Shown in pieces: positions 4,770 to 27,848 of a stretch of 64,000 nt of DNA. Origin of the DNA: a virus; IMG/VR virus record IMGVR_UViG_3300025869_000011, positions 1 to 64,000 of that record. One strand, given 5' to 3'. Under the pieces are notes generated by a model that worked only from the letters and a program-made list of their open reading frames with translations, was not told the DNA's origin and did not search any database. Position numbers and translations under genes: made by a program. Numbering within the stretch: the stretch's first letter is position 1; the number at the start of each line of letters is the position of its first letter.

Positions 4770-4772
4770 GAT

Positions 4773-5640: not shown

Positions 5641-5651
5641 ATCAAATACTT

Positions 5652-6146
5652 ATGGCTAATATAGATAATAAATGTAAAGATCTCGAGGTAAGAGATTACT
5701 TTTCAGAGAACGGTTATGATCATTCTAAAAACTCATTAGAAGATCTTTATTCACTTCAAGCAAAAACACAATCTATGTATTTTGAGAAACAAGGTAGAAA
5801 ACCTTTTTCTGAATTTAATATAGGAGACGTTGTTGACTTTCTTATGGTAACTAACCATGCAATCATTGATGAATTACATGAAATGATGGATGCGGTTGGT
5901 GGTATTGAAGACGGCAAAGGTAATGCTGCATGGAAACCTTGGAAATCTGCAAACCTTGAAATTAGAAATCAAAAGTTATCTGATTTATCTCCAGGTGATC
6001 TTAAAGAATTAAAAATGGAATGGGTAGACGTAATGCATTTTGTATTTAATGCAGGGTTGGCTATTGGAGTTTCTCCAAAAGAGTTCTATAATTATTATCT
6101 TTCCAAAAATGAAGAAAATTGGAATAGACAAGAAAACAACTATTAA
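5652..6146 (+). CDS. T4 gp56-like dCTPase/dUTPase (dimeric all-alpha)
   Basis: GG...WKPWK...DLSP.D..E.K.E.VD..HF...KN.EN..RQ..Y matches gp56. Confidence 0.88.
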   Translation: MANIDNKCKDLEVRDYFSENGYDHSKNSLEDLYSLQAKTQSMYFEKQGRKPFSEFNIGDVVDFLMVTNHAIIDELHEMMDAVGGIEDGKGNAAWKPWKSANLEIRNQKLSDLSPGDLKELKMEWVDVMHFVFNAGLAIGVSPKEFYNYYLSKNEENWNRQENNY

Positions 6147-6168
6147 TTATTACATATAAAAAATAAAT

Positions 6169-8639: not shown

Positions 8640-8667
8640 TAATTAAAAACAAAAAAAATAAAACAAA

Positions 8668-8919
8668 ATGAAAGAAAAAATAATTTATTTAGCAGGTGCA
8701 CTGCTTTTCGGGGTAGCATCATGGCTAGTAGGAACTGTTTATAGCATATCAATAGATACTGCAATAATCAAAGATAAGATTGAAAAAGTTTATGAGGAGA
8801 ACTGCCCATATTGTATACATGCTGCGCATAGTTCAATCGGTGACCATCCACTATTATCTCCAACAATAAAACATGCACATCAGCATGTTGGTGATGAAAC
8901 CATTAAGGTAAACGATTAA
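8668..8919 (+). CDS. Small membrane-anchored Cys/His-rich protein
   Basis: N-terminal TM helix; CPYCIHAAH...HAHQH. Confidence 0.65.
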   Translation: MKEKIIYLAGALLFGVASWLVGTVYSISIDTAIIKDKIEKVYEENCPYCIHAAHSSIGDHPLLSPTIKHAHQHVGDETIKVND

Positions 8920-8938
8920 TCTTAATAAAAAAGAAAGA

Positions 8939-10714
8939 ATGACAGCAGATCAAATAGAAAAAGAATTAGGTTGGGAACGCGGTGTTGATTACCCAGAGTG
9001 GGGTCATACTGATGTTTACCTAAATACAATATCAAGAGGATATTGTTTACCTGGAGAAACTCCAAAGGACGCATATTGGAGAGTAGCAACAACTGTAGCT
9101 AATAGACTCAAGAAACCTGAAATGGCTGATAAGTTTATGAAGTACATTTGGAAAGGGTGGTTAAATCTAGCATCACCTGTATTAAGCAATACTGGAACAG
9201 AAAGAGGTTTACCTATAAGTTGTTTTGGTATAGATGTAGCAGATTCAATAAATGATATAGGACAAAAGAACCTTGAATTAATGTTATTAGCTAAACATGG
9301 TGGTGGTGTAGGAATATGCCATAATCAAATTAGACCTGCTGGTGCAGAGATAACCGACAATGGAACAAGTGATGGTGTAGTACCTTTTATTAAAATTAAT
9401 GATTCTACTATTCTTGCAACTAATCAAGGTGCTGTAAGAAGAGGTGCTGCGAGTACTAACCTAAGTATTGATCATAGTGATTTTTGGGAATGGTTAGAAA
9501 TTAGAGAACCTAAAGGTGATATTAATAGACAATGTTTAAATACAAACCAGTGTGTTATTATTTCTGATAAGTTTATGAGAAATGTTTTAGAAGGCGATGC
9601 TGAATCTAGAAAAAGATATGGAGCAGTACAGAGAAAGCGTAGACAAACCGGTCAACCATATATTATGTATAGAGGAAATGTTAATAAACAAAACCCTGAA
9701 GCATATAAGAAAAACGGCCTAAAGGTTTTTATGACTAACATTTGTTCTGAAATTGTTTTACATACAGATGAAAATCATTCTTTTGTTTGTTGTTTAAGTT
9801 CTCTTAATCTTTCTAAGTATGATGAATGGAAAAATACTAATCTGATTTATGATTCAACATGGTTCTTAGATGGTGTACTTGAAGAATTTTTACAAAAAGC
9901 AAAATATAGAAAAGGGTTTGAAAATTCTGTAAGATCTGCTGAAAAGGGTAGGGCATTAGGTTTAGGTGTATTAGGATGGCATACTTATTTACAGCAAAGA
10001 GGTATTGCATTTGAAGGGCTAGAGGCTCAATATGAAACTCGTAATATATTTTCTCAAATTAAAATAGAAAGTGAAAAGGCAAGCCGAGATCTTGCTGAGG
10101 AATACGGAGAACCTTTATGGTGTAGAGATACCGGTTTTAGAAATACTCATTTAAGAGCAGTTGCACCAACAGTTTCTAATTCAAAATTAGCCGGTGGAAT
10201 ATCTGCAGGTATTGAACCAGTGCCAGCAAATATATGGACCGATCAATCAGCAAAGGGAACCTTTATTAGAAAGAATAAACAATTAGAAGGGTATCTTGAT
10301 AAAATTGGACATGATAATAAAAAGGTATGGGACAAAATTATGGCTGACGGTGGATCTGTGCAAGGTTTAAAATTCTTAGATGATTGGTGTTTCTTAAAAG
10401 GAATATTAATGAAATGTAAAGATGTTCCTCAATACCAAGAAGGCGTTCCGTTCAAGGATGTGTTTAAAACATTTAAAGAAATCAATCAATTAGAATTAGT
10501 AAAACAAGCAGGTGTTAGACAACAATATGTAGACCAGGCAGTATCTTTAAATCTTGCTTTTCCTAAAGAAGCTACTCCAAAATGGATTAACCAGGTTCAC
10601 TTAGAAGCATGGAAGCAAGGAATTAAAACTTTATACTATATGAGAACTGAATCTGTATTAAGAGGTGATATTGCACAAAAGGCAATGGAAGACTGTGTTA
10701 GTTGTGACGGTTAA
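8939..10714 (+). CDS. nrdA: Ribonucleotide reductase class I alpha subunit (no ATP cone)
   Basis: PISCF, TNICSEI, APTVSNS, KTLYY, C-terminal CVSCDG. Confidence 0.96.
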   Translation: MTADQIEKELGWERGVDYPEWGHTDVYLNTISRGYCLPGETPKDAYWRVATTVANRLKKPEMADKFMKYIWKGWLNLASPVLSNTGTERGLPISCFGIDVADSINDIGQKNLELMLLAKHGGGVGICHNQIRPAGAEITDNGTSDGVVPFIKINDSTILATNQGAVRRGAASTNLSIDHSDFWEWLEIREPKGDINRQCLNTNQCVIISDKFMRNVLEGDAESRKRYGAVQRKRRQTGQPYIMYRGNVNKQNPEAYKKNGLKVFMTNICSEIVLHTDENHSFVCCLSSLNLSKYDEWKNTNLIYDSTWFLDGVLEEFLQKAKYRKGFENSVRSAEKGRALGLGVLGWHTYLQQRGIAFEGLEAQYETRNIFSQIKIESEKASRDLAEEYGEPLWCRDTGFRNTHLRAVAPTVSNSKLAGGISAGIEPVPANIWTDQSAKGTFIRKNKQLEGYLDKIGHDNKKVWDKIMADGGSVQGLKFLDDWCFLKGILMKCKDVPQYQEGVPFKDVFKTFKEINQLELVKQAGVRQQYVDQAVSLNLAFPKEATPKWINQVHLEAWKQGIKTLYYMRTESVLRGDIAQKAMEDCVSCDG

Positions 10715-10723: not shown

Positions 10724-11470
10724 ATGAAAAATTATACTTATATACTTGGCCCTTGTAGTATTGAAAATGAGGATAACTTTTTAGAAGTAGCTAAAACATT
10801 ATATGCTTGTATGGGAGATAAGAACTGGTACTTAAAAGGATCTTTTGATAAAGCAAATAGAACTTCCATACATTCTGATAGAGGCCCTGGGTTAGAGGAA
10901 GGAATGGAGATTATGAGAACGGTTAAACACTATTATCCTGATATTAAAATCATAACTGACATTCATGAACCTGACCAAGCATTACCTTTATCTGAAGTAG
11001 TTGATGTTATTCAAATACCGGCATTCTTATGTCGGCAAACTGATCTTTTAGTTGAATGTGCAAAAAACTTTAATGTCATTAACATTAAGAAAGGTCAATG
11101 GTTATCTGCTGATGCAATGAAACATGCAGTTACCAAAATAAAAGAAGTAGATCCAAAGTGTGAAGTATGGGTAACCGAGCGAGGATCTAATTTTGGATAT
11201 GATAGACTTATTGTAGATTTTAGAGGAGTTGATGTAATGAAAGAATTTGCAGATAAAGTTATTTTAGATTGTACCCACTCAACACAAATGGCAGGTGAAG
11301 GTATAACTGGCGGTAGTCGTAAATTAGCAAAACAATATGCTAAAGCAGCTAAGATTTTTGAATATGATGGTTCATTTATTGAAACTCACCCAGATCCAGA
11401 TAATGCTATTTCAGATTCCGAAAGTCAAGTAGAATTAGACTGGTTAGTTACTCAAATAAATAATATATGA
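10724..11470 (+). CDS. kdsA: KDO-8-phosphate synthase
   Basis: GPCSIE, SFDKANRTS, QIPAFLCRQTDLL, NIKKGQ, DCTHS, ETHPDP...SD. Confidence 0.93.
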   Translation: MKNYTYILGPCSIENEDNFLEVAKTLYACMGDKNWYLKGSFDKANRTSIHSDRGPGLEEGMEIMRTVKHYYPDIKIITDIHEPDQALPLSEVVDVIQIPAFLCRQTDLLVECAKNFNVINIKKGQWLSADAMKHAVTKIKEVDPKCEVWVTERGSNFGYDRLIVDFRGVDVMKEFADKVILDCTHSTQMAGEGITGGSRKLAKQYAKAAKIFEYDGSFIETHPDPDNAISDSESQVELDWLVTQINNI

Positions 11471-12528
11471 GTCTAGACTACAATAAATTACTTAATCGTA
11501 AACCTATAATAACCGATCTTAAATTAATTAAAGATTTTATTAAAGGCAAAAGAATACTTGTTACAGGTGGTGCAGGTTCAATAGGTAGTGAAATAGTAAG
11601 ACAGCTTGTTAAGTTTAATGCATCTACTGTAACTGTATTTGATAATGCAGAAGCATCTATGTTTCATTTAGAACAAGAGATAAGTAGATCAAATCCAAAT
11701 TCTCATATTAAATATGTAATAGGTGATGTTAGAGATAAGTATAGGTTAGAAGAAGTTTTTGATTCATTTAAACCTAATATAGTTTTTCATGCAGCTGCAT
11801 ATAAACATGTACCTATGATGGAGGCAAATCCTGTTGAGGCAATCAAAACAAATGTATTAGGTACAATGAACGTCTCAAATATTTCATATATGAATGAAGT
11901 AGATAAATTTATAATGGTATCTACTGACAAGGCAGTTAACCCAACAAATGTTATGGGTGCAACTAAAAGAATAGCAGAATTATATACTCAATTCTTAGAA
12001 ACAAAATCAGCAACTAACTTTATTGTTACAAGATTTGGTAATGTACTAGGATCTGAAGGTTCAGTAATTCCAACATTTGTAAAGCAAATTAAAAGAGGCG
12101 GTCCGGTAAGTGTTACACACACGGAAGTTATAAGATACTTTATGACTATACCTGAGGCATGCCAATTAGTATTACAAGCAAGTGTACTAGGAGATGGTGG
12201 TGAAGTGTTTTTATTTGATATGGGTGAACCTGTAAGCATTACTGATTTAGCAAAAAATTTAATTAAGCATTTTAATAGTAATGCTGAAATAGAGTATATA
12301 GGCTTAAGACCAGGTGAAAAATTATATGAAGAATTATTATGTAATGGTGAGAATATGATTCCTACTGAGGATCATAACATTATGAAATTAAACCACGAAG
12401 AATATGATTTTAAAACGTTAATACCTAAAATAGAAAAGTTATCTAAAATAAGATCAAATGATTTTTACAAGATACTTTTATTAATGAAAAGTATTGTTCC
12501 AGAATTTAAAAGAGAAAGTAATGATTAA
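11467..12528 (+). CDS. pglF: UDP-GlcNAc 4,6-dehydratase (PglF/CapD catalytic domain)
   Basis: TGGAGSIGSE, HAAAYKHVP, STDKAVNPTNVMGATK, RFGNVLGS, GLRPGEKLYEEL. Confidence 0.9.
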   Translation: MSLDYNKLLNRKPIITDLKLIKDFIKGKRILVTGGAGSIGSEIVRQLVKFNASTVTVFDNAEASMFHLEQEISRSNPNSHIKYVIGDVRDKYRLEEVFDSFKPNIVFHAAAYKHVPMMEANPVEAIKTNVLGTMNVSNISYMNEVDKFIMVSTDKAVNPTNVMGATKRIAELYTQFLETKSATNFIVTRFGNVLGSEGSVIPTFVKQIKRGGPVSVTHTEVIRYFMTIPEACQLVLQASVLGDGGEVFLFDMGEPVSITDLAKNLIKHFNSNAEIEYIGLRPGEKLYEELLCNGENMIPTEDHNIMKLNHEEYDFKTLIPKIEKLSKIRSNDFYKILLLMKSIVPEFKRESND

Positions 12529-13063
12529 TATTTACGGAAAAGGTGGTCACGCAAAAGTAGTTAATTCTGTTTTAGGTAGTAGTCAAGTAAATTTTTATAA
12601 TGATGAGGATTTTGATTTACAACAAGGCCCGTGGGTCATAGCAATAGGTAATAATAAATCCAGAAAAAGAATAGCTGAAGAAGTGCTAGGTGAAATAGAA
12701 TATGTAACAGTTATATCTGATTCTGCAATTATATGCAATTATGATATTGGTGAAGGTAGCCAAATATTACAAGGAGCAGTAATACAAATAAACGCTAAAA
12801 TAGGTAGGCATTGTATAGTTAATACAGCAGCATCTATTGACCATGATTGTATATTAGAAGATTTTACTTTTATTGGCCCTAATGCAACATTATGTGGTGG
12901 TGTAGAAATTGGCGAAGGTAGTTATATTGGAGCAGGGTCGGTAATCTTACCTTATATAAAAATTGGAAAAAATTGTATGATAGGTGCAGGGTCAGTAGTG
13001 ACTAAAAACATTCCTGATAATTCAACTGCATACGGAAATCCTGCTAGAAGAAAAATAATATGA
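12521..13063 (+). CDS. pglD: PglD/NeuD-like sugar acetyltransferase
   Basis: GKGGHAKVV, AIGNN..R, hexapeptide repeats, IDHDC, YGNPAR. Confidence 0.88.
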   Translation: MINIYGKGGHAKVVNSVLGSSQVNFYNDEDFDLQQGPWVIAIGNNKSRKRIAEEVLGEIEYVTVISDSAIICNYDIGEGSQILQGAVIQINAKIGRHCIVNTAASIDHDCILEDFTFIGPNATLCGGVEIGEGSYIGAGSVILPYIKIGKNCMIGAGSVVTKNIPDNSTAYGNPARRKII

Positions 13064-14175
13064 AAAAAATTTACTTATCACCGCCTCATATGTCAGGCAA
13101 AGAATTAGATTACATTAAAAAAGCTTTTGATGATAATTGGATTGCTCCGATTGGACCTCAGCTTAATATGTTTGAAGAAAAGGTTAAAGAATACACTGGA
13201 GCAAAACATGCAGTAGCAGTTTCATCAGGTACTGCTGGTATTCATTTAGCATTAAAGGCATTAAATGTAAGTGAGGGTGATTATGTTATCTGTTCTTCTC
13301 TTACTTTTATAGGAACAGTTAACCCTATTATTTATTGTGGAGCAGAGCCTATTTTTGTAGATTCAGAAGAAACTACTTGGAATTTAGATCCAGTTTTATT
13401 AGAAACTGCAATACTTAATTCAACGGCTTTAGGTAAAAAACCTAAGGCTATAATACCAGTTCATATTTTTGGGGTACCTTGTGATATGGATGCAATTAAA
13501 AAATTATCAGATGAATATGACATACCTATTATTGAAGACGCAGCAGAAAGTATTGGTTCTAAATTTAATAATAAACATACTGGAACCTTTGGCTCTATTG
13601 GCATTTATTCTTTTAACGGAAATAAACTCTTATCTACCTCTGGTGGTGGAGTAATCATAACAGATGATAAGAAGAAGGCTGAAAGAATGAAGTTCTTATC
13701 TACTCAAGCAAAAGATACTATGCCGTTTTATCACCACACAGAAATAGGTTATAATTATAGAATGAGTAACATTTTAGCCGCTATTGGGATTGGTCAAATG
13801 GAAGTTATCGAAGAAAGAATTAATAGAACTAGAGAAATTAATAAAGTTTATAGAAAAGAATTAAGTAAGTATTTTTATTCATTTCAGAACGAAAGAAACA
13901 CAGATAGATCAAACATGTGGTTAACTTGTGCTTTATTAAAAGGAGAAGACAGACCAGAAGATCTTATATCACATTTAGAAAAAGATAATATTGAAGCAAG
14001 AAGATTATGGAAGCCAATGCATGAACAGCCAGTTCTAAAAGGATATAGAAAATATATAAATGGAAATAGCTCTTTATTATTTTTACAAGGTATATGTTTA
14101 CCATCCGGTTCTAGTATGACTGACTCGGATTTAAAAAGAGTAATAAAGTCAGTAAAAACATTTTTTAATAAATGA
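13060..14175 (+). CDS. pglE: DegT/DnrJ family sugar aminotransferase (PglE/EpsN-like)
   Basis: LSPPHM, SSGTAGIHLAL, EDAAES, SFNGNK, GYNYRMSN. Confidence 0.92.
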   Translation: MKKIYLSPPHMSGKELDYIKKAFDDNWIAPIGPQLNMFEEKVKEYTGAKHAVAVSSGTAGIHLALKALNVSEGDYVICSSLTFIGTVNPIIYCGAEPIFVDSEETTWNLDPVLLETAILNSTALGKKPKAIIPVHIFGVPCDMDAIKKLSDEYDIPIIEDAAESIGSKFNNKHTGTFGSIGIYSFNGNKLLSTSGGGVIITDDKKKAERMKFLSTQAKDTMPFYHHTEIGYNYRMSNILAAIGIGQMEVIEERINRTREINKVYRKELSKYFYSFQNERNTDRSNMWLTCALLKGEDRPEDLISHLEKDNIEARRLWKPMHEQPVLKGYRKYINGNSSLLFLQGICLPSGSSMTDSDLKRVIKSVKTFFNK

Positions 14176-15068
14176 TAAATTTTGAAGAGTATAGATTATT
14201 AGAATCTTATATAGGTTCTAAAAATTTTGAAATTTTGTTGGAGAAAAATCTTTCTAATAAAATTGATAACAAAATAAAATTCGGTATAGTAATGCCTACT
14301 CATAAAATATCTGATGGTGGTGCTCAGACAACTAGACAAAATCACATGACTACACCTAGTATATTAAAAGATTCTTTAACATCAATAAAAAATCAAAAGT
14401 ATGATAATTATACGGTTTACTTAGTAGGTGATAAATATGATGGTGATGAAGAGATAAAGGAAGTAATGAATAGTATTATCCCAAAGGGTAAATTAAAATA
14501 TCATAACCTGTCATCACCTGGTGAAAGAGATAAAGGTTTTACAAAGCAACAATTTAGATATACTGCAGGTTGCGGTGCAATGAATAAAGGTTTGCAAATG
14601 GCTAAGTCAGATGGGTGTGATTATATTGTTAGAATTGACCATGATGATAAGTGGACTCCTAATCACTTAGAGCTTTTAGCAAAAGCATACACACAATATC
14701 CTGAATTGGCATATGTATTCACAAGAAGCCGTAAAAAGATAGACGCAACAAATAGCTCTAAGAAATATATGTACCAACCTAGGGACGAAAGGCATACTAA
14801 TCTAATAGAACCAAATAATCTTGGTTATACTCATGGTGATGTTAGTCACTCTGCAGTTTCATGGAGACCTTCTATGTGTGGTGATTTAAGATATCGTGAT
14901 GCCGACGCGCAATGTAATACCGAACCTAAAATATCTAAAGAAAAAACTAACCCAGCTGATGTTGACATGTTTAACAGAATGATGAAGGTTATAAAAGATA
15001 AAGGTCATAAGTATATGTACGTACCAAAACTAACAAGTTTCTATAGAAACAGAAAAGGTAAATTCTAA
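14172..15068 (+). CDS. Glycosyltransferase family 2
   Basis: GIVMPT, SIKNQKY, N.GL, RIDHDDKW.PNHL (DxDD). Confidence 0.85.
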   Translation: MINFEEYRLLESYIGSKNFEILLEKNLSNKIDNKIKFGIVMPTHKISDGGAQTTRQNHMTTPSILKDSLTSIKNQKYDNYTVYLVGDKYDGDEEIKEVMNSIIPKGKLKYHNLSSPGERDKGFTKQQFRYTAGCGAMNKGLQMAKSDGCDYIVRIDHDDKWTPNHLELLAKAYTQYPELAYVFTRSRKKIDATNSSKKYMYQPRDERHTNLIEPNNLGYTHGDVSHSAVSWRPSMCGDLRYRDADAQCNTEPKISKEKTNPADVDMFNRMMKVIKDKGHKYMYVPKLTSFYRNRKGKF

Positions 15069-15403: not shown

Positions 15404-15955
15404 ATGGAACGTTGCTTAATATTAGATTTTGATGATACTTTAGTTTCAACTATAGATACTCATGCAAATTCATGGAAACTTGCTATAGAAAGAGTATTGA
15501 ATAGGGATATACCTATTGAAACAATAATGTCTGATATTAATTACGGAATGGATGTTCTTTTAAAGAAATATCAATTAACTGAAGCTGAGTCCCAATTAGC
15601 ACAAGATTACAAAAGAGAAATATTTTCAAAGAATCTTCATAAGACTAAAATAAATCAATTACTTTTGTGGATAATTAAAAATTCTCAATTTGAAAAAGTT
15701 ATTATAGCATCAAATTCATCTAGAGAAAATGTAGATAGAATTATGGCTTATCATAATATAAGTAATGAATTATTTGATATGATTGTAACGAGGGATGATG
15801 TTTTAAATAAAAAGCCACACTCAGATATGGCAGATTTAATTTTTAAAACATTTCCTAAATATAATCCAGCTGATTTTTTAATGGTTGGTGATTCAGAAGT
15901 AGATTCAACATTCGCACTTAAAAACAAAATGAAATGCATACTGGTAAAGTTTTAG
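15404..15955 (+). CDS. HAD-superfamily phosphatase
   Basis: DFDDTL, ASNS, KKPH, VGDSEVD. Confidence 0.9.
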   Translation: MERCLILDFDDTLVSTIDTHANSWKLAIERVLNRDIPIETIMSDINYGMDVLLKKYQLTEAESQLAQDYKREIFSKNLHKTKINQLLLWIIKNSQFEKVIIASNSSRENVDRIMAYHNISNELFDMIVTRDDVLNKKPHSDMADLIFKTFPKYNPADFLMVGDSEVDSTFALKNKMKCILVKF

Positions 15956-16680
15956 TAGGAAATAGTGGAGATAGGGTATATCTTCAAGATAACAAAGTTA
16001 TTAAAGAAGCTGGGGTTTATCCTATAAAGTTTAAGCAGCAAATGGATTGGTTAAAAAATTGTACCCATCCGAATTTTATAAAGATTAATCCTATATCAGA
16101 TACTTCATTTGAAATGAAAAAATACCCAACATGGTATGATAAAATCTGTGAACAGCCTTTAATTAAATCAATTGACCAATTAGATGATCTTATTCATATT
16201 GTAAATGATTTTGATGGTTACGGTACTGATGTAGATACAAGATCTTATTTAGATAAATTAGAAGGTAGAACAGGTTATACTTATGAAGGTGAATTAGATG
16301 CATCGTCAGGCTGGGGGTTTGTTCATGGTGATTTAACAGTAAGTAATATCTTATATGATAAGGATTTTATTTTTATTGATCCACGAGGTACTGAAGAGCA
16401 GAATTATTATGACTATGGAAAACTGATGCAATCTTTTGTAATGAAATATGAGGCCCATATATACAATGAAAGGAATTCTAAATATCTTAAGTTCTGTAGG
16501 GAAGCAGAAAACATAATGTATGAATGGTATGACGAATACCAATTAAAATTCTTTTTAGCAGTTCACTTATTAGGAGCTGTTCCATTTTTTGAATTAAATG
16601 AAAGATATGAATTGGCAGGTATGTTCCTTAAGAAAGGGCATGAATTATTCGATGAATTAGAAATTAAATATAGCAAATGA
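15934..16680 (+). CDS. APH/choline-kinase-like phosphotransferase
   Basis: HGDLTVSNIL...FIDPRG...YDYGKL. Confidence 0.85.
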   Translation: MHTGKVLVGNSGDRVYLQDNKVIKEAGVYPIKFKQQMDWLKNCTHPNFIKINPISDTSFEMKKYPTWYDKICEQPLIKSIDQLDDLIHIVNDFDGYGTDVDTRSYLDKLEGRTGYTYEGELDASSGWGFVHGDLTVSNILYDKDFIFIDPRGTEEQNYYDYGKLMQSFVMKYEAHIYNERNSKYLKFCREAENIMYEWYDEYQLKFFLAVHLLGAVPFFELNERYELAGMFLKKGHELFDELEIKYSK

Positions 16681-17384
16681 GTAGAGTAAGAAAAGCAATT
16701 ATCTTAGCAGCCGGGAGGTCTACTAGGTATGGATCAAATAAACTTATAGATCCAATTTTAGGAAAATCAACAATTCAGTACTGTATTGAATTTTGTATTG
16801 AGAATGGAATAGAGGATGCATATGTTACTATAAGTAAATCTGACTTCTTTTTTAAAAATAGAAATACAAAATTATCTCATCCTATTATTGAAAGTTTATC
16901 AAAGTATAAAGAAAAGATAAACATTTGTTATGAATTTCAGAAGGATGATGAATATGGACCAGGCGCTGCAATTAAGGCATGGGAAGGTAAATTTTATGAA
17001 CCTTTCTTATGTCTCTTTGGTGACAATTATTATCAAGGTAATATTGGTTTAGAATACCATGATCCTAATAACACTGTTGTTACTTATAAGGATTATGAAA
17101 CTAGAGCAAGAAATTTACAACTTGCTACTATCCTAGAAGATGTGGTTATTGAAAAACCGCATGGTGTAGTAAGCGGTAGATATTTTTGCGGATATATGAT
17201 ATTTGGTAAAGAGGCATTTGATAACTTAAGTAGTATTAAATTATCAAACAGAAATGAATATGAAATTACTCATCTTATAAACTCGATGGATAATTTAAAA
17301 TTTGAAGAATTAAATATATGTTGGTATGATTTAACATACGAACAAGATAAACAAGTAATAGAAGATATTATTCAAAATTGTTAA
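16677..17384 (+). CDS. Sugar-1-phosphate nucleotidyltransferase (RmlA-like)
   Basis: AIILAAGRSTRY, FGDN, EKP, S.RNEYEIT. Confidence 0.9.
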   Translation: MSRVRKAIILAAGRSTRYGSNKLIDPILGKSTIQYCIEFCIENGIEDAYVTISKSDFFFKNRNTKLSHPIIESLSKYKEKINICYEFQKDDEYGPGAAIKAWEGKFYEPFLCLFGDNYYQGNIGLEYHDPNNTVVTYKDYETRARNLQLATILEDVVIEKPHGVVSGRYFCGYMIFGKEAFDNLSSIKLSNRNEYEITHLINSMDNLKFEELNICWYDLTYEQDKQVIEDIIQNC

Positions 17385-17385: not shown

Positions 17386-18651
17386 ATGAAAGAGAATGTA
17401 AAAAAGATTGGTTTTTTTAAATTAGGTAAAGCCATAAAGTTTAATGAAAACAGTTGGAGCGCAATCGGTGGTGATTGTGAACCTAAGCAATTAATTTGTT
17501 CAATTGCAAACAGAAATCCTAATATCGAATATTGGCTATTAAGCCCAAATGATTTAGGTAAGTTTAGAGCAAAACAAAAACCTAAAGTAAATTCTTTATT
17601 CGGCCCACCGCAAACAGATGAACCTATAGTTCCTAATAATATTAAAGAATTTCATTCTACTATGAAAGAGAGAAAGTCTACTGATGAAACTGTTGAAATT
17701 ATTCAAGGTTTAGATTTAGATTTTATTTTCTTTTATACTGGTCCAACAAGTACTGTTAATATTCCAGAGTATATCAACAAGAAGGATGGTACTGGTCAAG
17801 TTAAATCGTTGGATTTCTTTAAGTATTATGCAGCTCCAATTATTAAAGCGATGAATGAATTGGAAAAGAAAGTTCCTATTGTAGGTTTACTTGTTGATAA
17901 CCGATATGTTCTTGCGTGTAAGGATTGGAGTATAAATAATAGACCAACCTATTACTTAGCACAAAATACATTTACTAAAGAAGAACAATATTTCTGTAAT
18001 CCACCACTGAGAGATGTTAAAACAATTACATCTACATATGAATATTCAGGTATTGAAACAGTATTTCTTTTAGATAAGAAAAGATATGATACTGATGAAT
18101 TATTTAAAATGAAAAAGACCAATTCATTTATGATGCTACAGAATCAAGGTAAAGGTTCAGGTGGAATGGATCGTTGGGATCCAGTAAAAGAATACATTGT
18201 TGATCAAGAAATAGAAACTGATATCTATGGTAAATGGGATGATGAGATTAAAGAAAAGTATCCTAAATGGTTTAAAGGAGAAACTAGAATCGAAACAATG
18301 ACCGATGAATTACTCGGTACTAAATATACATTCTGTGTACCTATTAAAGAAGGTATGGTAACCTCTAAGTATGCTGAAATGCTACACTATGGTATTATAC
18401 CTTTCTTACACCCATCTTACGATACTGACTTTAATGTATTCCCTGAAGGTCATTTTATTAGATGTAAATCAGCAGAAGATTTAAAAAAGAAAATTGAATT
18501 CTTAAATGCAAACCCGGAGCATTATAAGAAATTATTTTATAACCTACAAGAAAAGTATCTTAAGGATTCTTATTATACTGGAGAGCATGTAGATAACAAG
18601 ATCTGGGAATCTTATGAAAGAGTAACTAAAACTGAAACCGTAAATGTATAA
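17386..18651 (+). CDS. GT-B glycosyltransferase, distantly T4 beta-glucosyltransferase-like
   Basis: N-terminal KLG...GGD.E; DIYGKW; C-terminal VTSKYAEML..GIIPFL...YD. Confidence 0.6.
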   Translation: MKENVKKIGFFKLGKAIKFNENSWSAIGGDCEPKQLICSIANRNPNIEYWLLSPNDLGKFRAKQKPKVNSLFGPPQTDEPIVPNNIKEFHSTMKERKSTDETVEIIQGLDLDFIFFYTGPTSTVNIPEYINKKDGTGQVKSLDFFKYYAAPIIKAMNELEKKVPIVGLLVDNRYVLACKDWSINNRPTYYLAQNTFTKEEQYFCNPPLRDVKTITSTYEYSGIETVFLLDKKRYDTDELFKMKKTNSFMMLQNQGKGSGGMDRWDPVKEYIVDQEIETDIYGKWDDEIKEKYPKWFKGETRIETMTDELLGTKYTFCVPIKEGMVTSKYAEMLHYGIIPFLHPSYDTDFNVFPEGHFIRCKSAEDLKKKIEFLNANPEHYKKLFYNLQEKYLKDSYYTGEHVDNKIWESYERVTKTETVNV

Positions 18652-19666
18652 TTCTGAAACAAAAATCCTAGTCACCGGTGGTGCTGGGTTCGTTGGTACA
18701 AATTTTATCAATGATTTATTAAATAGAGGACATAATCCTAAATGTATTGCAGTGATCGATAATATGGAACACGGTACTTATATACCTAAAGTCCATGATC
18801 AAATTGAAAATTTTCATAAAGTAGATATTAGAAATCAATATGTAGAAAACATTATTCAGGATTTTGCACCTGATTATGTTTATCACTTCGCTGGCTTGGT
18901 TTCTATTTATGACTGTCATGAAGATCCATACGAAGCTGTAGATAATAATATCTTAGGAAGTATTAATGTAATGAATGGTTGTGTAAAGGCAGATGTAAAA
19001 AGAATTATCTTTAGTGAAACTTCTGCTGTATATGAAAATTGTGAAATGCCTAAAGAAGGGTTTAACGAGAATCAATCTGATCCTACTACAATTTATTCTA
19101 CAACTAAAGCATGCCTTGCCTTATTAGCAGAATCATACCAGAGAACTAAAGGTTTAAATTATACTGCATTGAGATACTTTAATGTTGCTGGGCCACTTCA
19201 AGACTATAATAGAACCATACCTCCTGTATTCGCTGGATTTATTTTAAGAATTAAAGGTAATCATAATCCTATAGTGTTTGGTGATTATATGAAGGCAAGA
19301 GATTATATTGATGTATCTGATGTTAATGCATTCCACATTCTTTGTATGGAAAATGAAGATACCGCAAACCAAACCTTTAATTTAGGAACCGGTAAAATGA
19401 CAAATCTAATGGATCTTAAAAATATGATTGGTGATATTATGGGAGTTGGTGAACCTGTGTTTGATCATTACGATCCGATTGCAGGTGAGGCTTTAAATAT
19501 CAGAGGGGATATCTCCAAAGCTAAATCGATGGGATGGGAACCTAAAAAAGATATAAGAGATACTATAAAAGAAACTATTGTTTATCTTGAAGAAGAAATT
19601 AATCAAGGTACAATTGACCCTTTAACTTTTATGGAAGATTTAGAAATTGAAAAAGTAAAAATATAA
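18644..19666 (+). CDS. NAD-dependent nucleotide-sugar epimerase/dehydratase
   Basis: TGGAGFVG, YSTTK, LRYFNVAG, RDYIDVSD. Confidence 0.92.
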   Translation: MYNSETKILVTGGAGFVGTNFINDLLNRGHNPKCIAVIDNMEHGTYIPKVHDQIENFHKVDIRNQYVENIIQDFAPDYVYHFAGLVSIYDCHEDPYEAVDNNILGSINVMNGCVKADVKRIIFSETSAVYENCEMPKEGFNENQSDPTTIYSTTKACLALLAESYQRTKGLNYTALRYFNVAGPLQDYNRTIPPVFAGFILRIKGNHNPIVFGDYMKARDYIDVSDVNAFHILCMENEDTANQTFNLGTGKMTNLMDLKNMIGDIMGVGEPVFDHYDPIAGEALNIRGDISKAKSMGWEPKKDIRDTIKETIVYLEEEINQGTIDPLTFMEDLEIEKVKI

Positions 19667-19667
19667 T

Positions 19668-20930
19668 ATGGAAAAAGAATTAAAATGGGGTACTATAATT
19701 CCACTGATTGGTGGTAGTGCTATAGGATGTAAAAAATCTGCAGGTAACGAACCTGCATTTCATTTAAGTTATGATGCGTTTGCTGCTAATGAAAGTCATA
19801 TTGAAAAATATTGGCCTGATGTACCTATGTATAGGTTAGATCATGAAGATTTAGAAATTCCTAAACAAACCTTTAACGAAGTAGATTATGTAAATTCAGT
19901 TTGTCCTTGTGCAGGGTTATCACAATTAAATTCTGCAAGAGGAACGTCTGCTTCTCGTGGATCTGGTGCTACTCAAAATCAATGGATGTATAATTCATCA
20001 GAATATATTTTAGAAAACGTAAAACCTAAAGTACTTTGGGGTGAGAATGCACCTGGTCTTTTTACTAAGATGGGAGAAGGTGTTGTTGACAGGTTAAGAG
20101 AAATAGGCGAAAAATATGGCTATAGTTTTTCTTTAATTAAAACAAACACCGAGCTTCATGGAATTCCACAAAGAAGAATGAGAACTTTTTATTTCTTTTG
20201 GAATACACCAACTGTACCTATGTTAAGTTGGAAATTCAGAGAAAAGAAATTACTAATTGATTATCTTAATGAAATTCCTAAGGATGCTACACACCAAGAT
20301 ATGTTTATGGTTGAAGGTAAAGTCACAGATCATTTTACACCTTATGAATATGTTTTAGAAAAGGAAGGTTTAACTCATGCTGAATTTGCTGCAAAATTTA
20401 AAAAAGGAACTATTGCACAGTACTTAGAAAAAAATGAACTTATTGATGACTGTATTAAATGGTTAGAAAAACATTATCCTAAAAGAGGGTTTTCAAATAA
20501 AAAATCTACAAAGACTTTTATTGATATGTTAGAGCACCAACAATATAAAACAAGTCAAGGATTAGGTTATTGGGATGCATCCCCGCATTTCTTTCACGAT
20601 TCTTTTTCTGCTCTTATTGGTAGAAATATGTTTAATGGTGTACACCCAGTAGAAAACAGATATCTTAATGTTAGAGAAATGCTTCACTTAATGGGACTTC
20701 CTTTAGACTTCGGTATTGAAAGCTCAAGACAAGTAAATCATATTGCTCAAAATGTACCTGTTACAACTGCTATGGATATGGCTGATGAGGTAAAGAAATT
20801 TTGTAAAGGCGAGGCTAAGATGACTAATTTTACATTTCTGAAACAAGATAACACAAGTCATAAAATTATTGATTCTGTTGAAATTGGATCAGAACCTAAA
20901 AAGAAATATAAAGTAAAAAGTATAATTTAA
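19668..20930 (+). CDS. DNA cytosine-C5 methyltransferase-like protein with atypical cofactor motifs
   Basis: PC catalytic motif (CPCAGLS), ENAP, PQRRMR, RYLNVRE..LMGLP; motif I is IPLIGG instead of FxGxG. Confidence 0.82.
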   Translation: MEKELKWGTIIPLIGGSAIGCKKSAGNEPAFHLSYDAFAANESHIEKYWPDVPMYRLDHEDLEIPKQTFNEVDYVNSVCPCAGLSQLNSARGTSASRGSGATQNQWMYNSSEYILENVKPKVLWGENAPGLFTKMGEGVVDRLREIGEKYGYSFSLIKTNTELHGIPQRRMRTFYFFWNTPTVPMLSWKFREKKLLIDYLNEIPKDATHQDMFMVEGKVTDHFTPYEYVLEKEGLTHAEFAAKFKKGTIAQYLEKNELIDDCIKWLEKHYPKRGFSNKKSTKTFIDMLEHQQYKTSQGLGYWDASPHFFHDSFSALIGRNMFNGVHPVENRYLNVREMLHLMGLPLDFGIESSRQVNHIAQNVPVTTAMDMADEVKKFCKGEAKMTNFTFLKQDNTSHKIIDSVEIGSEPKKKYKVKSII

Positions 20931-20932: not shown

Positions 20933-21937
20933 ATGAAAGATAACGCATTAGCAATAGGAATATCTAGTTTAGAGTTTACCAATATCTTATGTAGTTATTA
21001 TCCTAAAGGGATCAAAGAAAATTTTGATATTTACTTATTTGTTGATAATAATAAAATAGACATAGATAAACTTCAGTGCATTTTTAAAGAGCATGATTTA
21101 GATATTTTTATTAATGCTAAAATTATTATCTTAAAGGATGTATATGATCATTATATAGAAAAGCATCAATATAAAGGTAATGCAAAAAAGTTTCTATTAA
21201 ATCATGGTTGTTTATTTAAAATTCTAATGCCTATTTATCTAAGAGAAATGTTTGGTGTTAAAAGAACATATGTTTCCGATGATGATGTATTTATCCTAAA
21301 TGATCTCAGTTATATGTGGACTAAATATAAAGAGTTCGGTATTAAGAAGGAAAACTTATTTTACATTAGAAATAAAAATAAGTATGATGTAATGAATGCC
21401 TTCAATGAAATATTTGAATCTGATTTTACTTTGGATCAAATGAATGGTCTAGCAATAAATGCAGGTAATATTATTTATGACGAAGACCCTAAGTTAGAAT
21501 ATTACTTTGAGCGGTTTATGAAGCACCCATTTATTCATCATATGTTTTTTGATTTTACAGGTTATACGAGCTGGACAGTAGAACAGAGGTTTCATCATTT
21601 TAATATTCATAGATATTTAGCAGAAGGAAAGGAAGTTAAATTTTTAGAAAGTAAAGACTTAAGACTAATGCAAAATCTTGATAAAGATATGAAGGCTGGT
21701 GAGCCACCTGAAAAATATTTAAAAGAAGTCGTACCATCCTTAATCCATTATGCAATAGGCACAAAAAAACCTTTATGGTTAAATGATTTTTTACCAGGTC
21801 TTAAATGGAGATATGGTTTTGACTATAAGGCCAAATATGAATTAAAGGATATTCTATATAATAAAGATTGGCGACCACCATCCTTTAAAAGTGTACAGAA
21901 AAAACAAACAGCATTAAAAATTAAGTCTGTATTTTAA
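20933..21937 (+). CDS. Putative GT-A (GT8-like) glycosyltransferase
   Basis: YVSDDDVFILNDL (DxD), INAG, EQ, IHYA...KP. Confidence 0.6.
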   Translation: MKDNALAIGISSLEFTNILCSYYPKGIKENFDIYLFVDNNKIDIDKLQCIFKEHDLDIFINAKIIILKDVYDHYIEKHQYKGNAKKFLLNHGCLFKILMPIYLREMFGVKRTYVSDDDVFILNDLSYMWTKYKEFGIKKENLFYIRNKNKYDVMNAFNEIFESDFTLDQMNGLAINAGNIIYDEDPKLEYYFERFMKHPFIHHMFFDFTGYTSWTVEQRFHHFNIHRYLAEGKEVKFLESKDLRLMQNLDKDMKAGEPPEKYLKEVVPSLIHYAIGTKKPLWLNDFLPGLKWRYGFDYKAKYELKDILYNKDWRPPSFKSVQKKQTALKIKSVF

Positions 21938-21988: not shown

Positions 21989-22738
21989 ATGGAAACAAAA
22001 ATTAACAAAATTGACGGTTATGAATTAAGTTCATTCGTTCGCAAACTACTTCCAATTGACAAATTCATCTTTATGAAAATCGCAAAAGAAGGTACTGTAT
22101 CTTCTGTATATTTTCCTGAGAGAGATGCCGTAAAATTGGTTAACACTCCAACTGCTGATATCTTTGATGCTGATATCTCTGAACCTGTAAAGGTAAGCTT
22201 TTATAATGGTACTAAAGTTATTGATGCATTAAGTCATTTTAATGGTGATGTCCAAGGTCGTATTAAGTATACTGAATATGATGGAGAATTAATGGCAAGT
22301 GATTTTATTTTAGAAAATGAAGATCTTCAAATTAATTTGGCATGTACAGATCCTTCATTATCTTTTATGGAAATGAGCAAGGAAGAAACTGATAGAGCAT
22401 TCGGTACAGATTCTAAAATGTTTAGTTTTGATTTACTTACTACTCATGTAGATAAAATGAAATCATTATTTAACTTAGATAAAGATGAAGATATCTTTAC
22501 TCTTTATATAGGAGAAAAAGGTATTAATATTAAAGGTACTTCTTATGATGCTACTTTATGCCACTCTTATGATTCAGATGTAGAAAAAGGTGCAAAAGTT
22601 GTAATTTATAAAAAGTATATTAATCTTTTAGATAAGGAAAATTACAAAGTAAGCGTTTGTGAAAATAAGGTTGTATTTAAATCTTTAGATACTAATACAC
22701 ATCTTACTGTTGCTGTTGCTATTACTGACGAGGATTAA
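21989..22738 (+). CDS. Probable sliding clamp (gp45/PCNA-like)
   Basis: ~250 aa, acidic, two-domain alpha/beta periodicity; adjacent to the polymerase C-half; clamp loader present. Confidence 0.6.
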   Translation: METKINKIDGYELSSFVRKLLPIDKFIFMKIAKEGTVSSVYFPERDAVKLVNTPTADIFDADISEPVKVSFYNGTKVIDALSHFNGDVQGRIKYTEYDGELMASDFILENEDLQINLACTDPSLSFMEMSKEETDRAFGTDSKMFSFDLLTTHVDKMKSLFNLDKDEDIFTLYIGEKGINIKGTSYDATLCHSYDSDVEKGAKVVIYKKYINLLDKENYKVSVCENKVVFKSLDTNTHLTVAVAITDED

Positions 22739-22816: not shown

Positions 22817-23935
22817 ATGACAGAGGAATTACAAAAAATTAACGAAGAGGCATCTAAGTTTTATAATTATGAACAGGCAGTTAAGTTAATGCTTAACTCT
22901 ATTTACGGCGCATTTGGTAATCCTTATTTTTATTTCTTTAATGTTGATATTGCTGAAACTATTACACTCCAAGGTAAAGATGCAATTTTATATACCGAAC
23001 AATTAGTTAATAAGTATTTTAAAGAGTTTTGGCATAAAGATCTACCAGCTCACGCTGCTATGGGTATTACTGTAACAGGTAAAATTGAAAAACCAGTAGG
23101 TATTTATATTGATACAGATTCAGTGTATGTTAAATTTGATGAAGTAATTCAAAAGTCGGAAGGCTGGAACGGTGATGAAAAAGAATTTATACTTAAGCTT
23201 TATAAGGTTAGGTTAAATGGTTATATAGAAAAGATTCTACAAAAATATGCAGACGATAATAATGCAGAAAACTTTTTATCTTTTGAATTAGAAAGTATTG
23301 CTAAAAATGCAATATGGTTGGCAAAGAAAAAGTATATGCAGAATATAGTTTGGAAGGATCCGGATATTCACTATGATGATCTTTCTAAAATTAGTTCAAA
23401 AGGATTTGAAATCATTCAGTCATCTACTCCTATTTTTGCAAGAGAAAAATTAAAAGAACTATTAACTTACATATTTTCTGTAAGTGAATTAGATATGGGA
23501 GCATTTGCATCTTTGCTTAAGGATGTTAAAAGACAATTTAGATTAGCAAATGTTGATCAAATCAGTTTTTCAAGAAAGGTTAATAATTATCAAAAGTATA
23601 TTGTAAATGATTATGAACAATTTGAGATCGCATCAAAATGCCCAATCGGCGTAAGATCTGCAGGTTATCATAATTACTTATTAAACAATTCAGGCAAAAA
23701 AGGTAAATACCAACCATTAGGAAACGGGGAAAAATGTAAAATGTATTTTTCTGAAGATAATTCCTGTGATGTATTTGCATATGCACCTGGAGATTATCCT
23801 TATGAATTCGCGCCTAAGATTGATTACGATCGACAATTCGAAAAAACAATATTAGATCCTATAAACAGAGTTGTTACTGCTATGGGATTTAAGGGATTCA
23901 ATAGAAACTTGATTTATACTACAAGTTTATTTTAA
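22817..23935 (+). CDS. Family-B DNA polymerase, C-terminal half (gp43B-like)
   Basis: Motif B KLMLNSIYGAFGN, motif C YIDTDSVY, KKKY, KGFE. Confidence 0.93.
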   Translation: MTEELQKINEEASKFYNYEQAVKLMLNSIYGAFGNPYFYFFNVDIAETITLQGKDAILYTEQLVNKYFKEFWHKDLPAHAAMGITVTGKIEKPVGIYIDTDSVYVKFDEVIQKSEGWNGDEKEFILKLYKVRLNGYIEKILQKYADDNNAENFLSFELESIAKNAIWLAKKKYMQNIVWKDPDIHYDDLSKISSKGFEIIQSSTPIFAREKLKELLTYIFSVSELDMGAFASLLKDVKRQFRLANVDQISFSRKVNNYQKYIVNDYEQFEIASKCPIGVRSAGYHNYLLNNSGKKGKYQPLGNGEKCKMYFSEDNSCDVFAYAPGDYPYEFAPKIDYDRQFEKTILDPINRVVTAMGFKGFNRNLIYTTSLF

Positions 23936-26808: not shown

Positions 26809-27088
26809 TACTGCAAAACTTAAAGTAAAGCATGTATTAGGAAATCATACAACATTACCAACTTACCCAGACGCTGAAGATATTACGTATGAACTGATAC
26901 GAGATTATTGTGGTAAAGTAGCAAAGGAAATTAAATTTACTAATGTATCTTTACAGAAAAAGTACAGCCTTACTGATGAAAAGGTTAATGAAATTTTAAT
27001 GACTCTTAAAAAGAAAAAGATTATTAAAGTATCATTATCTAATTCTGCATATACTACATACGAAATTATTACAAATCCATATGAATAA
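26789..27088 (+). CDS. Hypothetical protein, possible winged HTH
   Basis: Overlaps both neighbours; wHTH-like C-terminus. Confidence 0.6.
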   Translation: MLPKNLNTAKLKVKHVLGNHTTLPTYPDAEDITYELIRDYCGKVAKEIKFTNVSLQKKYSLTDEKVNEILMTLKKKKIIKVSLSNSAYTTYEIITNPYE

Positions 27089-27848
27089 GCATGACTTAAG
27101 ATTTAAAGAAACTCGCGGTGTTAAATTCATATGTGATGTTCATGATATGATGGGCCAACAGATATTAGGTGATCAAGGATGGGAGCTTCATTTAGAAGAT
27201 GTCTATAAAAAAATAATACTTAATGACTTTACTATTATTGATGTAGGTGCTAATATTGGTTGGCATACAGTTCAGTTTGGATTGCTAGGTAAAGAAGTGC
27301 ATGCATTTGAACCAGTAAAATCTAATTTCTATAATCTCTGTGGTAATGTTGTTGTTAACAATTTAAGTGATAAGATTACTTTATATGAAGAAGCATTAAG
27401 TAATAAACCAGAGTTACTAGGTATTATTAATCAAGAAGATTTTTATGAAAATCCATTATGGTCACATAATACAAAGGAATTGGTATTTAATAATTGTGGC
27501 GGTATTGCATTAGGAAATACTGATAATAGTAATATGACTGCTAATACATTGGATAGTTTTTCATTCGCACCAACTTTAATTAAAATAGATGTTGAAGGAT
27601 TTGAGCTTAAGGTTTTACAAGGTTCTATGAAAACTTTAAATAATCATAAGCCAATTGTTTTAATTGAACTTCACCCCAAAAATACTGATAATGAATCCAT
27701 AAAGACAATTCTCTTATCATTAGGTTATAAGATGTATTTAATACCTAACTCATATAATACATATCAGCATTATGATTATTTAGCTTACCATGATGATACT
27801 AAACATGGTAAATTTGTTCAAAGGCTTATAGATTTAAACAAAATATAG
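27081..27848 (+). CDS. FkbM-family SAM methyltransferase
   Basis: DVGANIG, AFEP, IKIDVEGFE..VLQG. Confidence 0.9.
   Translation: MNKHDLRFKETRGVKFICDVHDMMGQQILGDQGWELHLEDVYKKIILNDFTIIDVGANIGWHTVQFGLLGKEVHAFEPVKSNFYNLCGNVVVNNLSDKITLYEEALSNKPELLGIINQEDFYENPLWSHNTKELVFNNCGGIALGNTDNSNMTANTLDSFSFAPTLIKIDVEGFELKVLQGSMKTLNNHKPIVLIELHPKNTDNESIKTILLSLGYKMYLIPNSYNTYQHYDYLAYHDDTKHGKFVQRLIDLNKI

Follow-up and report, generated by a model that had tools for sequence, protein, structure and literature searches.

Two published cases come closest to the gene considered here. One is CmoX of Synechococcus phage S-B43 (PDB 8yf3), a phage homologue of the cytosine-C5 methyltransferases (C5-MTases) whose donor specificity has been switched at the equivalent of HhaI Asn304, with Arg350 binding the carboxymethyl group, and which feeds a hypermodification pathway; it uses Phe25, Glu47 and Asp69 for the adenosine, bears an SPPC motif (S95-P96-P97-C98) and travels with CmoA and an amide ligase (PMC12783734). 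The other is the group of gene clusters uniting a C5-MTase, a TET/5mYOX enzyme and glycosyltransferases, in which the methylase makes 5-methylcytosine (5mC) and the TET enzyme oxidises it after replication (PMC8256090; bioRxiv 10.1101/2023.12.21.572611). A wider frame is given by the ordinary Dcm/HhaI/HaeIII-type enzymes and by the glucosyl-5-hydroxymethylcytosine (5hmC) pathway of T-even phages, with gp42, the gp1 kinase, the gp56 dCTPase and the alpha- and beta-glucosyltransferases. Here we describe an open reading frame (ORF) at 19668-20930 of a viral stretch of 64,000 nucleotides (hereafter the window), which constitutes the first 64 kb of the 77.9-kb IMG/VR contig IMGVR_UViG_3300025869_000011 (CheckV completeness 28%; G+C about 30%). 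Its product typifies a family of methyltransferase-like (MT-like) proteins that fails the defining features of both of the closest published cases and is genetically coupled, in phage lineages that are not related to one another, to a dCMP-specific hydroxymethylase and to DNA glycosyltransferases.

The ORF encodes an intact, full-length protein with the C5-MTase fold and is tightly packed, lying one base from the stop codon of the preceding epimerase gene and two bases from the next ORF. Its match to the Pfam family PF00145 (DNA_methylase; E 5.8e-19, cut-off 22 bits) begins only at profile position 47, such that motif I is left unmatched, and in HMMER comparisons with solved C5-MTases the first ~60 residues were unaligned in every case; residues 1-55 were left out of the Pfam and HMMER alignments alike. 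A structure model, which the preliminary description of this DNA had suggested as a check, bears out the fold: the AlphaFold2 prediction (mean predicted local distance difference test, pLDDT, 87; predicted template-modelling score, pTM, 0.86) displays the class I methyltransferase order of strands and helices, and a Foldseek search with it recovered C5-MTases only (CmoX 8yf3, HaeIII, HhaI, DNMT1, MET1 and DIM-2, with E-values from 1e-10 to 2e-13), the top match being CmoX at a sequence identity of about 14%. Decay into a pseudogene was considered and rejected, as the reading frame is unbroken and the protein's motifs show conservation.

To place these motifs, we relied on an hhalign profile-profile alignment of 50 family members with nine canonical Dcm-type enzymes from phages and Escherichia coli, which extends over the full length (probability 99.2, E 8e-19); E. 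coli Dcm alone was uninformative in this respect and the nine aligned canonical enzymes were needed. With the Dcm/HhaI/HaeIII-type enzymes the family shares the fold, the order of the small and large domains, the Pro-Cys nucleophile of motif IV, the Glu-Asn of motif VI, the QxRxR of motif VIII, the Arg-Glu of motif IX and a variable target-recognition region between motifs VIII and IX. It differs from them in having [IV]PL[IV]GG as motif I, Ser/Thr in motif II, no conserved Asp in motif III, and PCA, ENA and QNV in motifs IV, VI and X, as well as in its clamp-binding-like C-terminal tail and its almost exclusive residence in phages. In motif I the canonical residues correspond to I11 (Phe), P12 (Ala), L13, G15 and G16 (the three Gly), so that the first Gly has become Leu, and P12, L13, I14, G15 and G16 are each at least 95% conserved in the family. 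The motif II position corresponds to E40-W41 in HhaI, and its ribose-binding Glu is replaced by Ser or Thr in 85 of 85 relatives, the next position being aromatic. In CmoX this position is E47-F48 (PMC12783734). Across the same 85 relatives the Asp of motif III is not conserved. The residues P80-C81 of motif IV and A128 of motif VI are invariant in the family; in a set of 63 relatives, conservation at Q168, R170, R172 and E337 reaches 95% or more, R336 does not vary in an alignment of 16 sequences, and a family signature, TFYFFW, directly follows motif VIII. Motif X aligns ambiguously: hhalign equates its Gly with Q361 and its Asn with N362 and deletes the Ala/Ser, whereas the ungapped HMMER alignment equates them with A360 and Q361. 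Neither restores GN(A/S)V, and Q361, N362, V363 and P364 are again at least 95% conserved.

The deviations are not the result of chance, drift or decay, because the same residues recur, invariant or nearly so, in 85 relatives of 31-95% identity: PL[IV]GG, [ST]-aromatic, CPCAGLS, GENAP, Q.R.R[TS]FYFFW and QNVP. The motif positions given in the preliminary description (IPLIGG at 11-16, PC at 80-81, EN at 126-127, QRRMR at 168-172 and IAQNVP at 359-364) hold, as do its observations that motifs I and X are changed and that the Glu-Asn of motif VI is kept; it overlooked the further changes in motifs II, IV and VI, including the replacement by Ala of the Val of ENV that is evident in the hhalign alignment. 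Its suggestion of a remodelled cofactor pocket is thus strengthened, since the remodelling appears to be family-wide and to involve more positions than it named, among them the probable equivalents of HhaI Gln82 and Asn304, which in that enzyme flank the transferable group (PMC3526304). Judged from these alignments, the enzyme would keep what attacks C6 and protonates N3, while the parts touching the cofactor and the C5 side would be changed. A similar Gln82-to-Ala change was introduced into M.HhaI Q82A/Y254S/N304A, where it is artificial and serves the use of synthetic analogues of S-adenosylmethionine (SAM) with motifs I and II retained (PMC3526304); in the present family it is natural, and the neighbourhood of the Asn304 position is also altered. 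CmoX likewise shares a phage origin with the family and is its nearest structural match; unlike it, this ORF has VCPC ([VLT]CPC in the family) without SPPC, and by alignment Gln361 or Asn362 where CmoX has Arg at the HhaI Asn304 position. The residues with which CmoX holds the adenosine (Phe25, Glu47, Asp69) and its accompanying amide ligase are likewise missing from the family. With neither SPPC, nor that Arg, nor a phage CmoA on the contig or in 12 carrier records, we rejected a CmoX-type carboxymethyltransferase.

A profile search over 1.84 billion representatives yielded 442 clusters at E ≤ 1e-30 and only 2075 hits in total at E ≤ 1e-3, which makes this a large clade standing well apart from ordinary C5-MTases. 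At least 576 relatives lie in viral contigs, and among 185,579 bacterial and archaeal species genomes we recovered only 12 loci, all on contigs of metagenome-assembled genomes. An MT-like query had eight matches among 50,697 phage records, and the only cultured phages carrying the family are Pseudoalteromonas phage XG4 (vB_Psh_XG4), the S-TIM5 group of cyanophages and Bacillus phage G; a megablast search of the operon against cultured phages returned nothing. Given this distribution, and as it was never seen as the partner of a restriction-modification system, the family is almost only phage-borne and does not represent a cellular restriction-modification methylase. Two loci with tandem MT-like paralogues (L041:9968-12407 and L043:9941-12375) have cores that are 66-67% identical and target-recognition regions that are only 19-29% identical, a pattern that would be expected of enzymes reading different sequence contexts. 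In the literature searched, including that on the DNA modification of phage G, we found no description of the family, of its coupling to hydroxymethylases or of its function, and the MetaGPA paper with its supplements contains nothing on PF00145. The phage itself seems cosmopolitan: marine metagenome contigs from 14 runs in at least 11 studies contain 98-100% of the words sampled from this stretch, though each such sample may be the source of this very DNA. Metatranscriptome contigs in Logan also overlap parts of the MT-like gene without any difference (e.g., 19633-20001), which is no proof of transcription as RNA libraries can hold DNA.

Chief among the new findings, which also include the module in Bacillus phage G, the clamp-binding-like tails and the fusions of eukaryote-type relatives described below, is the coupling of this family to a dCMP-specific homologue of thymidylate synthase in every carrier phage genome of sufficient completeness, usually together with DNA glycosyltransferases. 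In phage lineages other than that of the window (35-53% identity), the neighbours of the MT-like gene differ and a homologue of thymidylate synthase (TS) of the dCMP type persists. A TS homologue with Asp at the position of ThyA Asn177 occurs within 10 kb at 23 of about 52 distant loci (many of them short); when only viral records with a completeness of at least 45% are considered, nine of nine encode a divergent homologue that is not of the true TS type, with the diagnostic Asp confirmed in eight; the homologue of the ninth (G021), matched at 40.9 bits, is interrupted by an in-frame TGA. As a background, the hydroxymethylase query matched 3.8% of the 50,697 phage records. In the cultured carriers the MT-like gene and the TS homologue are 5 kb (XG4), 2.4 kb (S-TIM5) and 13 kb (phage G) apart. 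The coupling also extends to the glycosyltransferases. At one locus (L057) the order is hydroxymethylase, a homologue of the T4 alpha-glucosyltransferase (AGT; PF11440, E 3e-75) directly upstream of the MT-like gene, MT-like and UvsX; at another (L045) it is nucleotidyltransferase, TAGT-like, GT-B, GT25, GT-B, MT-like, nuclease, kinase and hydroxymethylase, GT denoting glycosyltransferase folds and families. In Bacillus phage G (L130; NC_023719.1 219303-234494), the MT-like gp301, with the motifs CPCSGLS, ENAP and AQGVP, is accompanied by two alpha-glucosyltransferases, a sugar nucleotidyltransferase, a HAD protein, a dTMP kinase, a dCMP deaminase and gp319, a hydroxymethylase-like TS homologue with Asp at the Asn177 position. 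In a complete genome of 293 kb (L032; IMGVR_UViG_3300007513_000001), a homologue of the helical domain of the 5-hydroxymethyldeoxyuridine (5-hmdU) DNA kinase (PF18723, E 3.4e-7; 8553-9995) lies immediately upstream of the MT-like gene. We note that this homologue is a candidate for phosphorylating 5hmC in DNA, and that the same cluster also encodes a hydroxymethylase, a dUTPase-family protein, an inositol-1-phosphate synthase and an FkbM methyltransferase.

These associations set the family apart from the clusters with TET enzymes, with which it shares the presence of a C5-MTase homologue beside DNA glycosyltransferases: none of 34 carrier records has a Pfam TET match over the cut-off, and here 5hmC would be made before replication. 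Likewise, CmoA (TIGR00740) was found in none of 12 carrier records, six of them complete or nearly so, though a host CmoA could still supply carboxy-SAM (Cx-SAM). As a single contrast, the T4-like phage RB43 has a true TS only and carries a canonical Dcm-type enzyme instead. Two further observations concern individual carriers. The gene of S-TIM5 annotated as 'ThyA' (L002:4766-5620) has a TS-like PPCH active site, yet Asp at the Asn177 position, and is probably a dCMP-specific enzyme whose product is either methyl or hydroxymethyl. One fragment of 76 kb and 26% completeness (L131; G016:C1:13536-13739) is the sole carrier fragment with a true TS only; it also shows a match of 13 bits to 2-oxoglutarate-dependent oxygenases of the Tet_JBP type that is far under the cut-off and probably noise.

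The contig of the window conforms to the same pattern. About 50 kb downstream of the MT-like gene, and outside the window, contig bases 70096-71007 (L001:1330-2241) encode a TS homologue of 303 residues, to which, among proteins of solved structure, the CMP hydroxymethylase MilA (E 1e-22) and T4 gp42 (E 4e-22) are closest, with true TS reaching just 6e-12. It has Asp at the ThyA Asn177 position, which marks cytosine specificity, keeps Asp169 (motif MRSNDLILGTPTD) and shares with MilA an Asp at the third residue ahead of the Cys. We considered whether this protein could be a 5-hydroxy-dCMP synthase of the RB69/DLP3 type and rejected this, as Asp169 is kept and the D169N replacement is the criterion for such synthases (PMC13326640). 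The gene order around it (G000:C1:68824-71883; L001:58-3117) is a guanylate-kinase-like gene, a thymidylate-kinase-like gene, the gp42-like dCMP hydroxymethylase and an ORF of 290 residues; this last ORF has a weak match to phrog_13126 (beta-1,4-glycosyltransferase; E 1.9e-4) and is possibly a further DNA glycosyltransferase. Searches of the contig for TET/JBP (Tet_JBP) and for CmoA (TIGR00740) found neither. Taken together, the hydroxymethylase, the two deoxynucleoside monophosphate (dNMP) kinases and the dCTPase-like enzyme in the window would constitute the classical pre-replicative route to 5hmC, so that the MT-like enzyme is not needed as the maker of an acceptor. Hence, the proposal of the preliminary description that this enzyme provides the acceptor for glycosylation finds no support. 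The gp42-like enzyme, dNMP kinases, nucleoside triphosphate (NTP) pyrophosphohydrolase and glycosyltransferases on the contig are all shared with the T-even pathway, and unlike the T-even phages this phage makes its own nucleoside diphosphate (NDP)-sugar, by means of the HAD, kinase, nucleotidyltransferase and epimerase genes. We know of no C5-MTase-fold enzyme in T-even phages.

A second association is with the sliding clamp. The MT-like gene lies within an operon for sugar activation and glycosyl transfer that is directly followed by an ORF which, by sequence, has no match to solved structures; its predicted fold is that of a two-domain sliding clamp (pLDDT 71), with matches to PCNA and the beta-clamp at E 1e-10 and a TM-score of about 0.65. 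The C-termini of the family are unalignable, and most are short, hydrophobic and resemble clamp-binding peptides (QLDQFML, QLDAFMV, SLEEFLK, TLEAFI, KQLELFS, KSLF, TALF), with YKVKSII as the candidate in the window. Phe occurs in the last five residues of 62% of the distinct family tails and of 29% of the other ORFs at the same loci (Fisher 1e-6, a value that is overstated because the sequences are related). Similar tails recur on neighbouring proteins: KKQMELF on a GT-B-like ORF (5164-6456) beside KQLELFS on the MT-like ORF of L054; TLENFF on the polymerase (3174-5678) beside SSLEEFLK on the MT-like ORF of L057; and, in the window, TTSLF on the polymerase (22817-23935) and KIKSVF on the ORF that follows the MT-like gene. 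The modification enzymes and the polymerase may thus share one mode of docking to the clamp. A predicted complex of the clamp with residues 366-420 of the MT-like protein scored 0.56, against 0.00 for the best of three controls, and lends weak support to clamp binding by this protein. Of 80 solved complexes 58 attained the mark for such scores, as did two of 110 mismatched pairs; scores of 0.60 or less that reach it came from only seven of the 80 solved complexes and from both mismatches. Across the runs at least 73% of the contacts were common, and the partner pLDDT was at least 41. It is reasonable to suppose that the MT-like enzyme may be tethered to the clamp.

Outside phages, dozens of clusters of proteins of 570-713 residues, 50-59% identical and with the same rewritten motifs, have C-terminal C2H2 or CXXC zinc fingers (P0033-P0092 and others). 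The named ones (P0040, P0083) are transcripts assembled from the copepod Neocalanus flemingeri, and they could reflect transfer between phages and eukaryotes or, alternatively, RNA of prey or symbionts. A further protein of 838 residues (P0319), representing a 47-member cluster from ENA, JGI and Logan contigs of 3-5 kb whose source organism looks eukaryotic, combines an N-terminal C2H2 zinc finger, an MT-like domain (E 5e-86 to the family profile) and a C-terminal TET2-like region, which matches the catalytic domain of human TET2 at E 6.8e-12 and the Pfam model Tet_JBP at 22.8 bits, under the cut-off. This fusion admits of two readings: it might join a writer of 5mC to its oxidase, which would favour true methylation, or a maker of 5hmC to a user of 5hmC, which would parallel the coupling to hydroxymethylases in phages.

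What then might these enzymes do? Our best guess, which we advance tentatively and with somewhat less than even confidence, is that they are clamp-tethered, SAM-using enzymes that would methylate, at the replication fork, the cytosines that escaped replacement. Briefly, the hydroxymethylase and not the MT-like enzyme would make the 5hmC acceptor for the sugars prior to replication; the C-terminal clamp-binding peptide would then hold the MT-like enzyme at the fork, where nascent phage DNA would be modified according to sequence context; and, in what is the weakest step, SAM would be bound in the atypical pocket and cytosines missed by 5hmC replacement would be methylated at C5, with virion DNA devoid of unmodified cytosine as the outcome. 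We favour methylation with SAM because the prior for SAM use by enzymes with the C5-MTase fold is high, and because a cytosine methylase would suit the fusions to zinc fingers, CXXC and TET; further, deviations from PCQ or GN also occur in genuine enzymes of this kind, DNMT3 and DIM-2 among them, the PCP of DIM-2 being visible in our alignment. Several points weigh against this proposal. The loss of the first Gly of motif I and of the Glu of motif II in every member, with an unconserved Asp in motif III, is out of the ordinary for an enzyme that uses SAM. The two residues on either side of the methyl group also appear to be changed, and in HhaI the Q82A replacement lowers methylation 16-fold and favours larger groups (PMC3526304). 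Moreover, the hydroxymethylase, the dNMP kinases and the dCTPase-like enzyme should leave scant unmodified cytosine, and the strict coupling to makers of 5hmC (hydroxymethylase in phages, TET in the fusion) is simpler if 5hmC is itself the substrate. A role in 'patching' is also ad hoc and, to our knowledge, without precedent.

The main alternative, though unlikely, is that the enzyme acts on 5hmC in DNA: Cys81 would add to C6 of a flipped 5hmC, the hydroxyl would leave, possibly after phosphorylation, and a nucleophile bound in the pocket would capture the exocyclic methylene intermediate, resulting in sequence-specific hypermodification or in exchange or removal of the group. A source of 5hmC is indeed at hand in both settings, namely the dCMP hydroxymethylase in phages and the TET2-like domain in the eukaryote-type fusion, and in L032 the gene just ahead of the MT-like one, which is homologous to the helical domain of the 5-hmdU DNA kinase, would fit such a reaction. 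The Klimasauskas laboratory has reportedly found that, in vitro and with no cofactor present, C5-MTases strip 5hmC of its hydroxymethyl group or attach thiols and selenols to it. Further, the residues for covalent activation are all kept, and those facing C5 and the cofactor are changed, including the equivalents of the space-making Q82-to-Ala and V121-to-Ala replacements (PMC3526304). Against this, the reaction has no natural precedent, the minimal operon of L057 (hydroxymethylase, AGT and MT-like) encodes no special supply of a nucleophile, the zinc-finger and CXXC fusions without TET are a better fit for a plain cytosine methylase, and the strong prior for SAM or a SAM derivative as cofactor of this fold applies here too. 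That the family are not methyltransferases at all, but clamp-tethered enzymes attaching, exchanging or removing a group on 5hmC, is doubtful; were it true, they would form a novel class of enzymes that hypermodify cytosine after replication, present in many marine and soil phages and, via fusions, in some eukaryotes. Improbable, in our view, is a generalised form of the inference in the preliminary description, by which unmodified cytosine would receive a non-methyl group at C5. The candidates would be hydroxymethyl, derived from formaldehyde or methylene-tetrahydrofolate; carboxymethyl, donated by Cx-SAM; some other portion of SAM; or the sugar of an NDP-sugar. The general claim of the preliminary description that C5-MTases can add such groups is substantiated by a documented natural case, CmoX, whose donor switch went through the Asn304 position (PMC12783734); the remodelling here involves the very residues that flank the transferable group (PMC3526304), and the gene sits among genes for NDP-sugars. 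The CmoX signature is however absent (VCPC and Gln/Asn instead of SPPC and Arg), no CmoA is encoded on the contig or in the 12 carrier records, save that a host CmoA could supply Cx-SAM, a second route to 5hmC would be redundant with the hydroxymethylase, and the strict coupling to the latter is left unexplained. Very improbable, finally, is that phage DNA is not the substrate, and that the protein instead binds or attacks cytosine of the host or of competitors (by trapping, deamination or a block to transcription), or serves as a non-catalytic base-flipping helper of the glycosyltransferases. An attack on unmodified cytosine would be tolerable only for phages without cytosine in their own DNA, which would explain the coupling to cytosine replacement, and the loss of SAM-binding residues with retention of the Cys would also be accounted for. 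However, the clamp-binding-like tails and the adjacency to the clamp point to nascent phage DNA, the zinc-finger fusions in transcripts from the copepod sample argue against a DNA-damaging activity, and the invariant catalytic residues speak against a purely structural role. Taken together, these readings leave a small part of the odds unassigned.

The distinction matters since a very abundant, cosmopolitan clade of the C5-MTase fold always accompanies genes for 5hmC and its glycosylation, where an ordinary methylase should have almost no substrate. If these are SAM enzymes as we favour, they would bind SAM without the canonical residues of motifs I, II and X, and phages with hydroxymethylcytosine would back up their modification at the fork; if they are not, they would embody as a natural chemistry what has so far been seen only in vitro or in engineered methylases. 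Phage hypermodification enzymes are tools for epigenome sequencing and DNA labelling and shape the arms races between phages and hosts, and the TET2-like fusion in eukaryote-type proteins connects the family to 5mC/5hmC biology beyond phages. The question can be addressed directly in culture, since Bacillus phage G, cyanophage S-TIM5 and Pseudoalteromonas phage XG4 are all carriers.

The features of the window on which the above is based are collected in the table. Close relatives (80-95% identity) retain the full operon, i.e., HAD, kinase, nucleotidyltransferase, GT-B, epimerase, MT-like, (GT-A), clamp and the C-terminal half of the polymerase, and the contig further encodes a T4-like replication apparatus comprising a split family B polymerase, NrdAB, UvsX, a gp41-like helicase and an SbcD-like nuclease.

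Table. Genes and protein motifs of the window discussed in the text (residue numbers refer to the MT-like protein)
Feature	Position in window	Strand	Basis or remark
NTP pyrophosphohydrolase, gp56-like dCTPase candidate	5652-6146	+	
HAD phosphatase	15404-15955	+	operon context
Kinase-like ORF	15934-16680	+	operon context; no Pfam match
Sugar-phosphate nucleotidyltransferase	16677-17384	+	Pfam
GT-B-type glycosyltransferase	17386-18651	+	weak Pfam match; no solved relative by sequence
NDP-sugar epimerase/dehydratase	18644-19666	+	Pfam
C5-MTase-fold (MT-like) ORF	19668-20930	+	420 aa, ATG start
Motif I, IPLIGG (residues 11-16); canonical F-A-G-I-G-G	19698-19715	+	hhalign, family alignments
Motif II position, S34-Y35; canonical Glu-aromatic	19767-19772	+	hhalign, family alignment; AlphaFold2 strand order agrees
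Motif IV, C-P-C-A (79-82); nucleophile Cys81 kept, HhaI Gln82 replaced by Ala82	19902-19913	+	hhalign, family alignments
Motif VI, E-N-A-P (126-129); Glu126 and Asn127 kept, Val of ENV replaced by A128	20043-20054	+	hhalign, family alignments
Motif VIII, Q-R-R-M-R (168-172); QxRxR kept	20169-20183	+	hhalign, family alignments
Motif IX, R336-E337; kept	20673-20678	+	hhalign, alignment
Motif X, IAQNVP (359-364); canonical (I)GN(A/S)VP	20742-20759	+	HMMER, hhalign
C-terminal tail YKVKSII, candidate clamp-binding peptide	20907-20927	+	
ORF labelled GT-A-like in the preliminary description; C-terminus KIKSVF	20933-21937	+	no family match here
Sliding clamp, two-domain PCNA/beta-clamp fold	21989-22738	+	fold prediction

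Upstream of this operon, at 10724-15068, the window contains a KdsA-like gene, a PglF-like dehydratase, a PglD-like acetyltransferase, a DegT-type aminotransferase and a GT2 glycosyltransferase, which are a second, separate sugar pathway in the same phage. A second methyltransferase ORF (27081-27848, plus strand; phrog_8156, E 3e-25) lies between UvsX and the replicative helicase.

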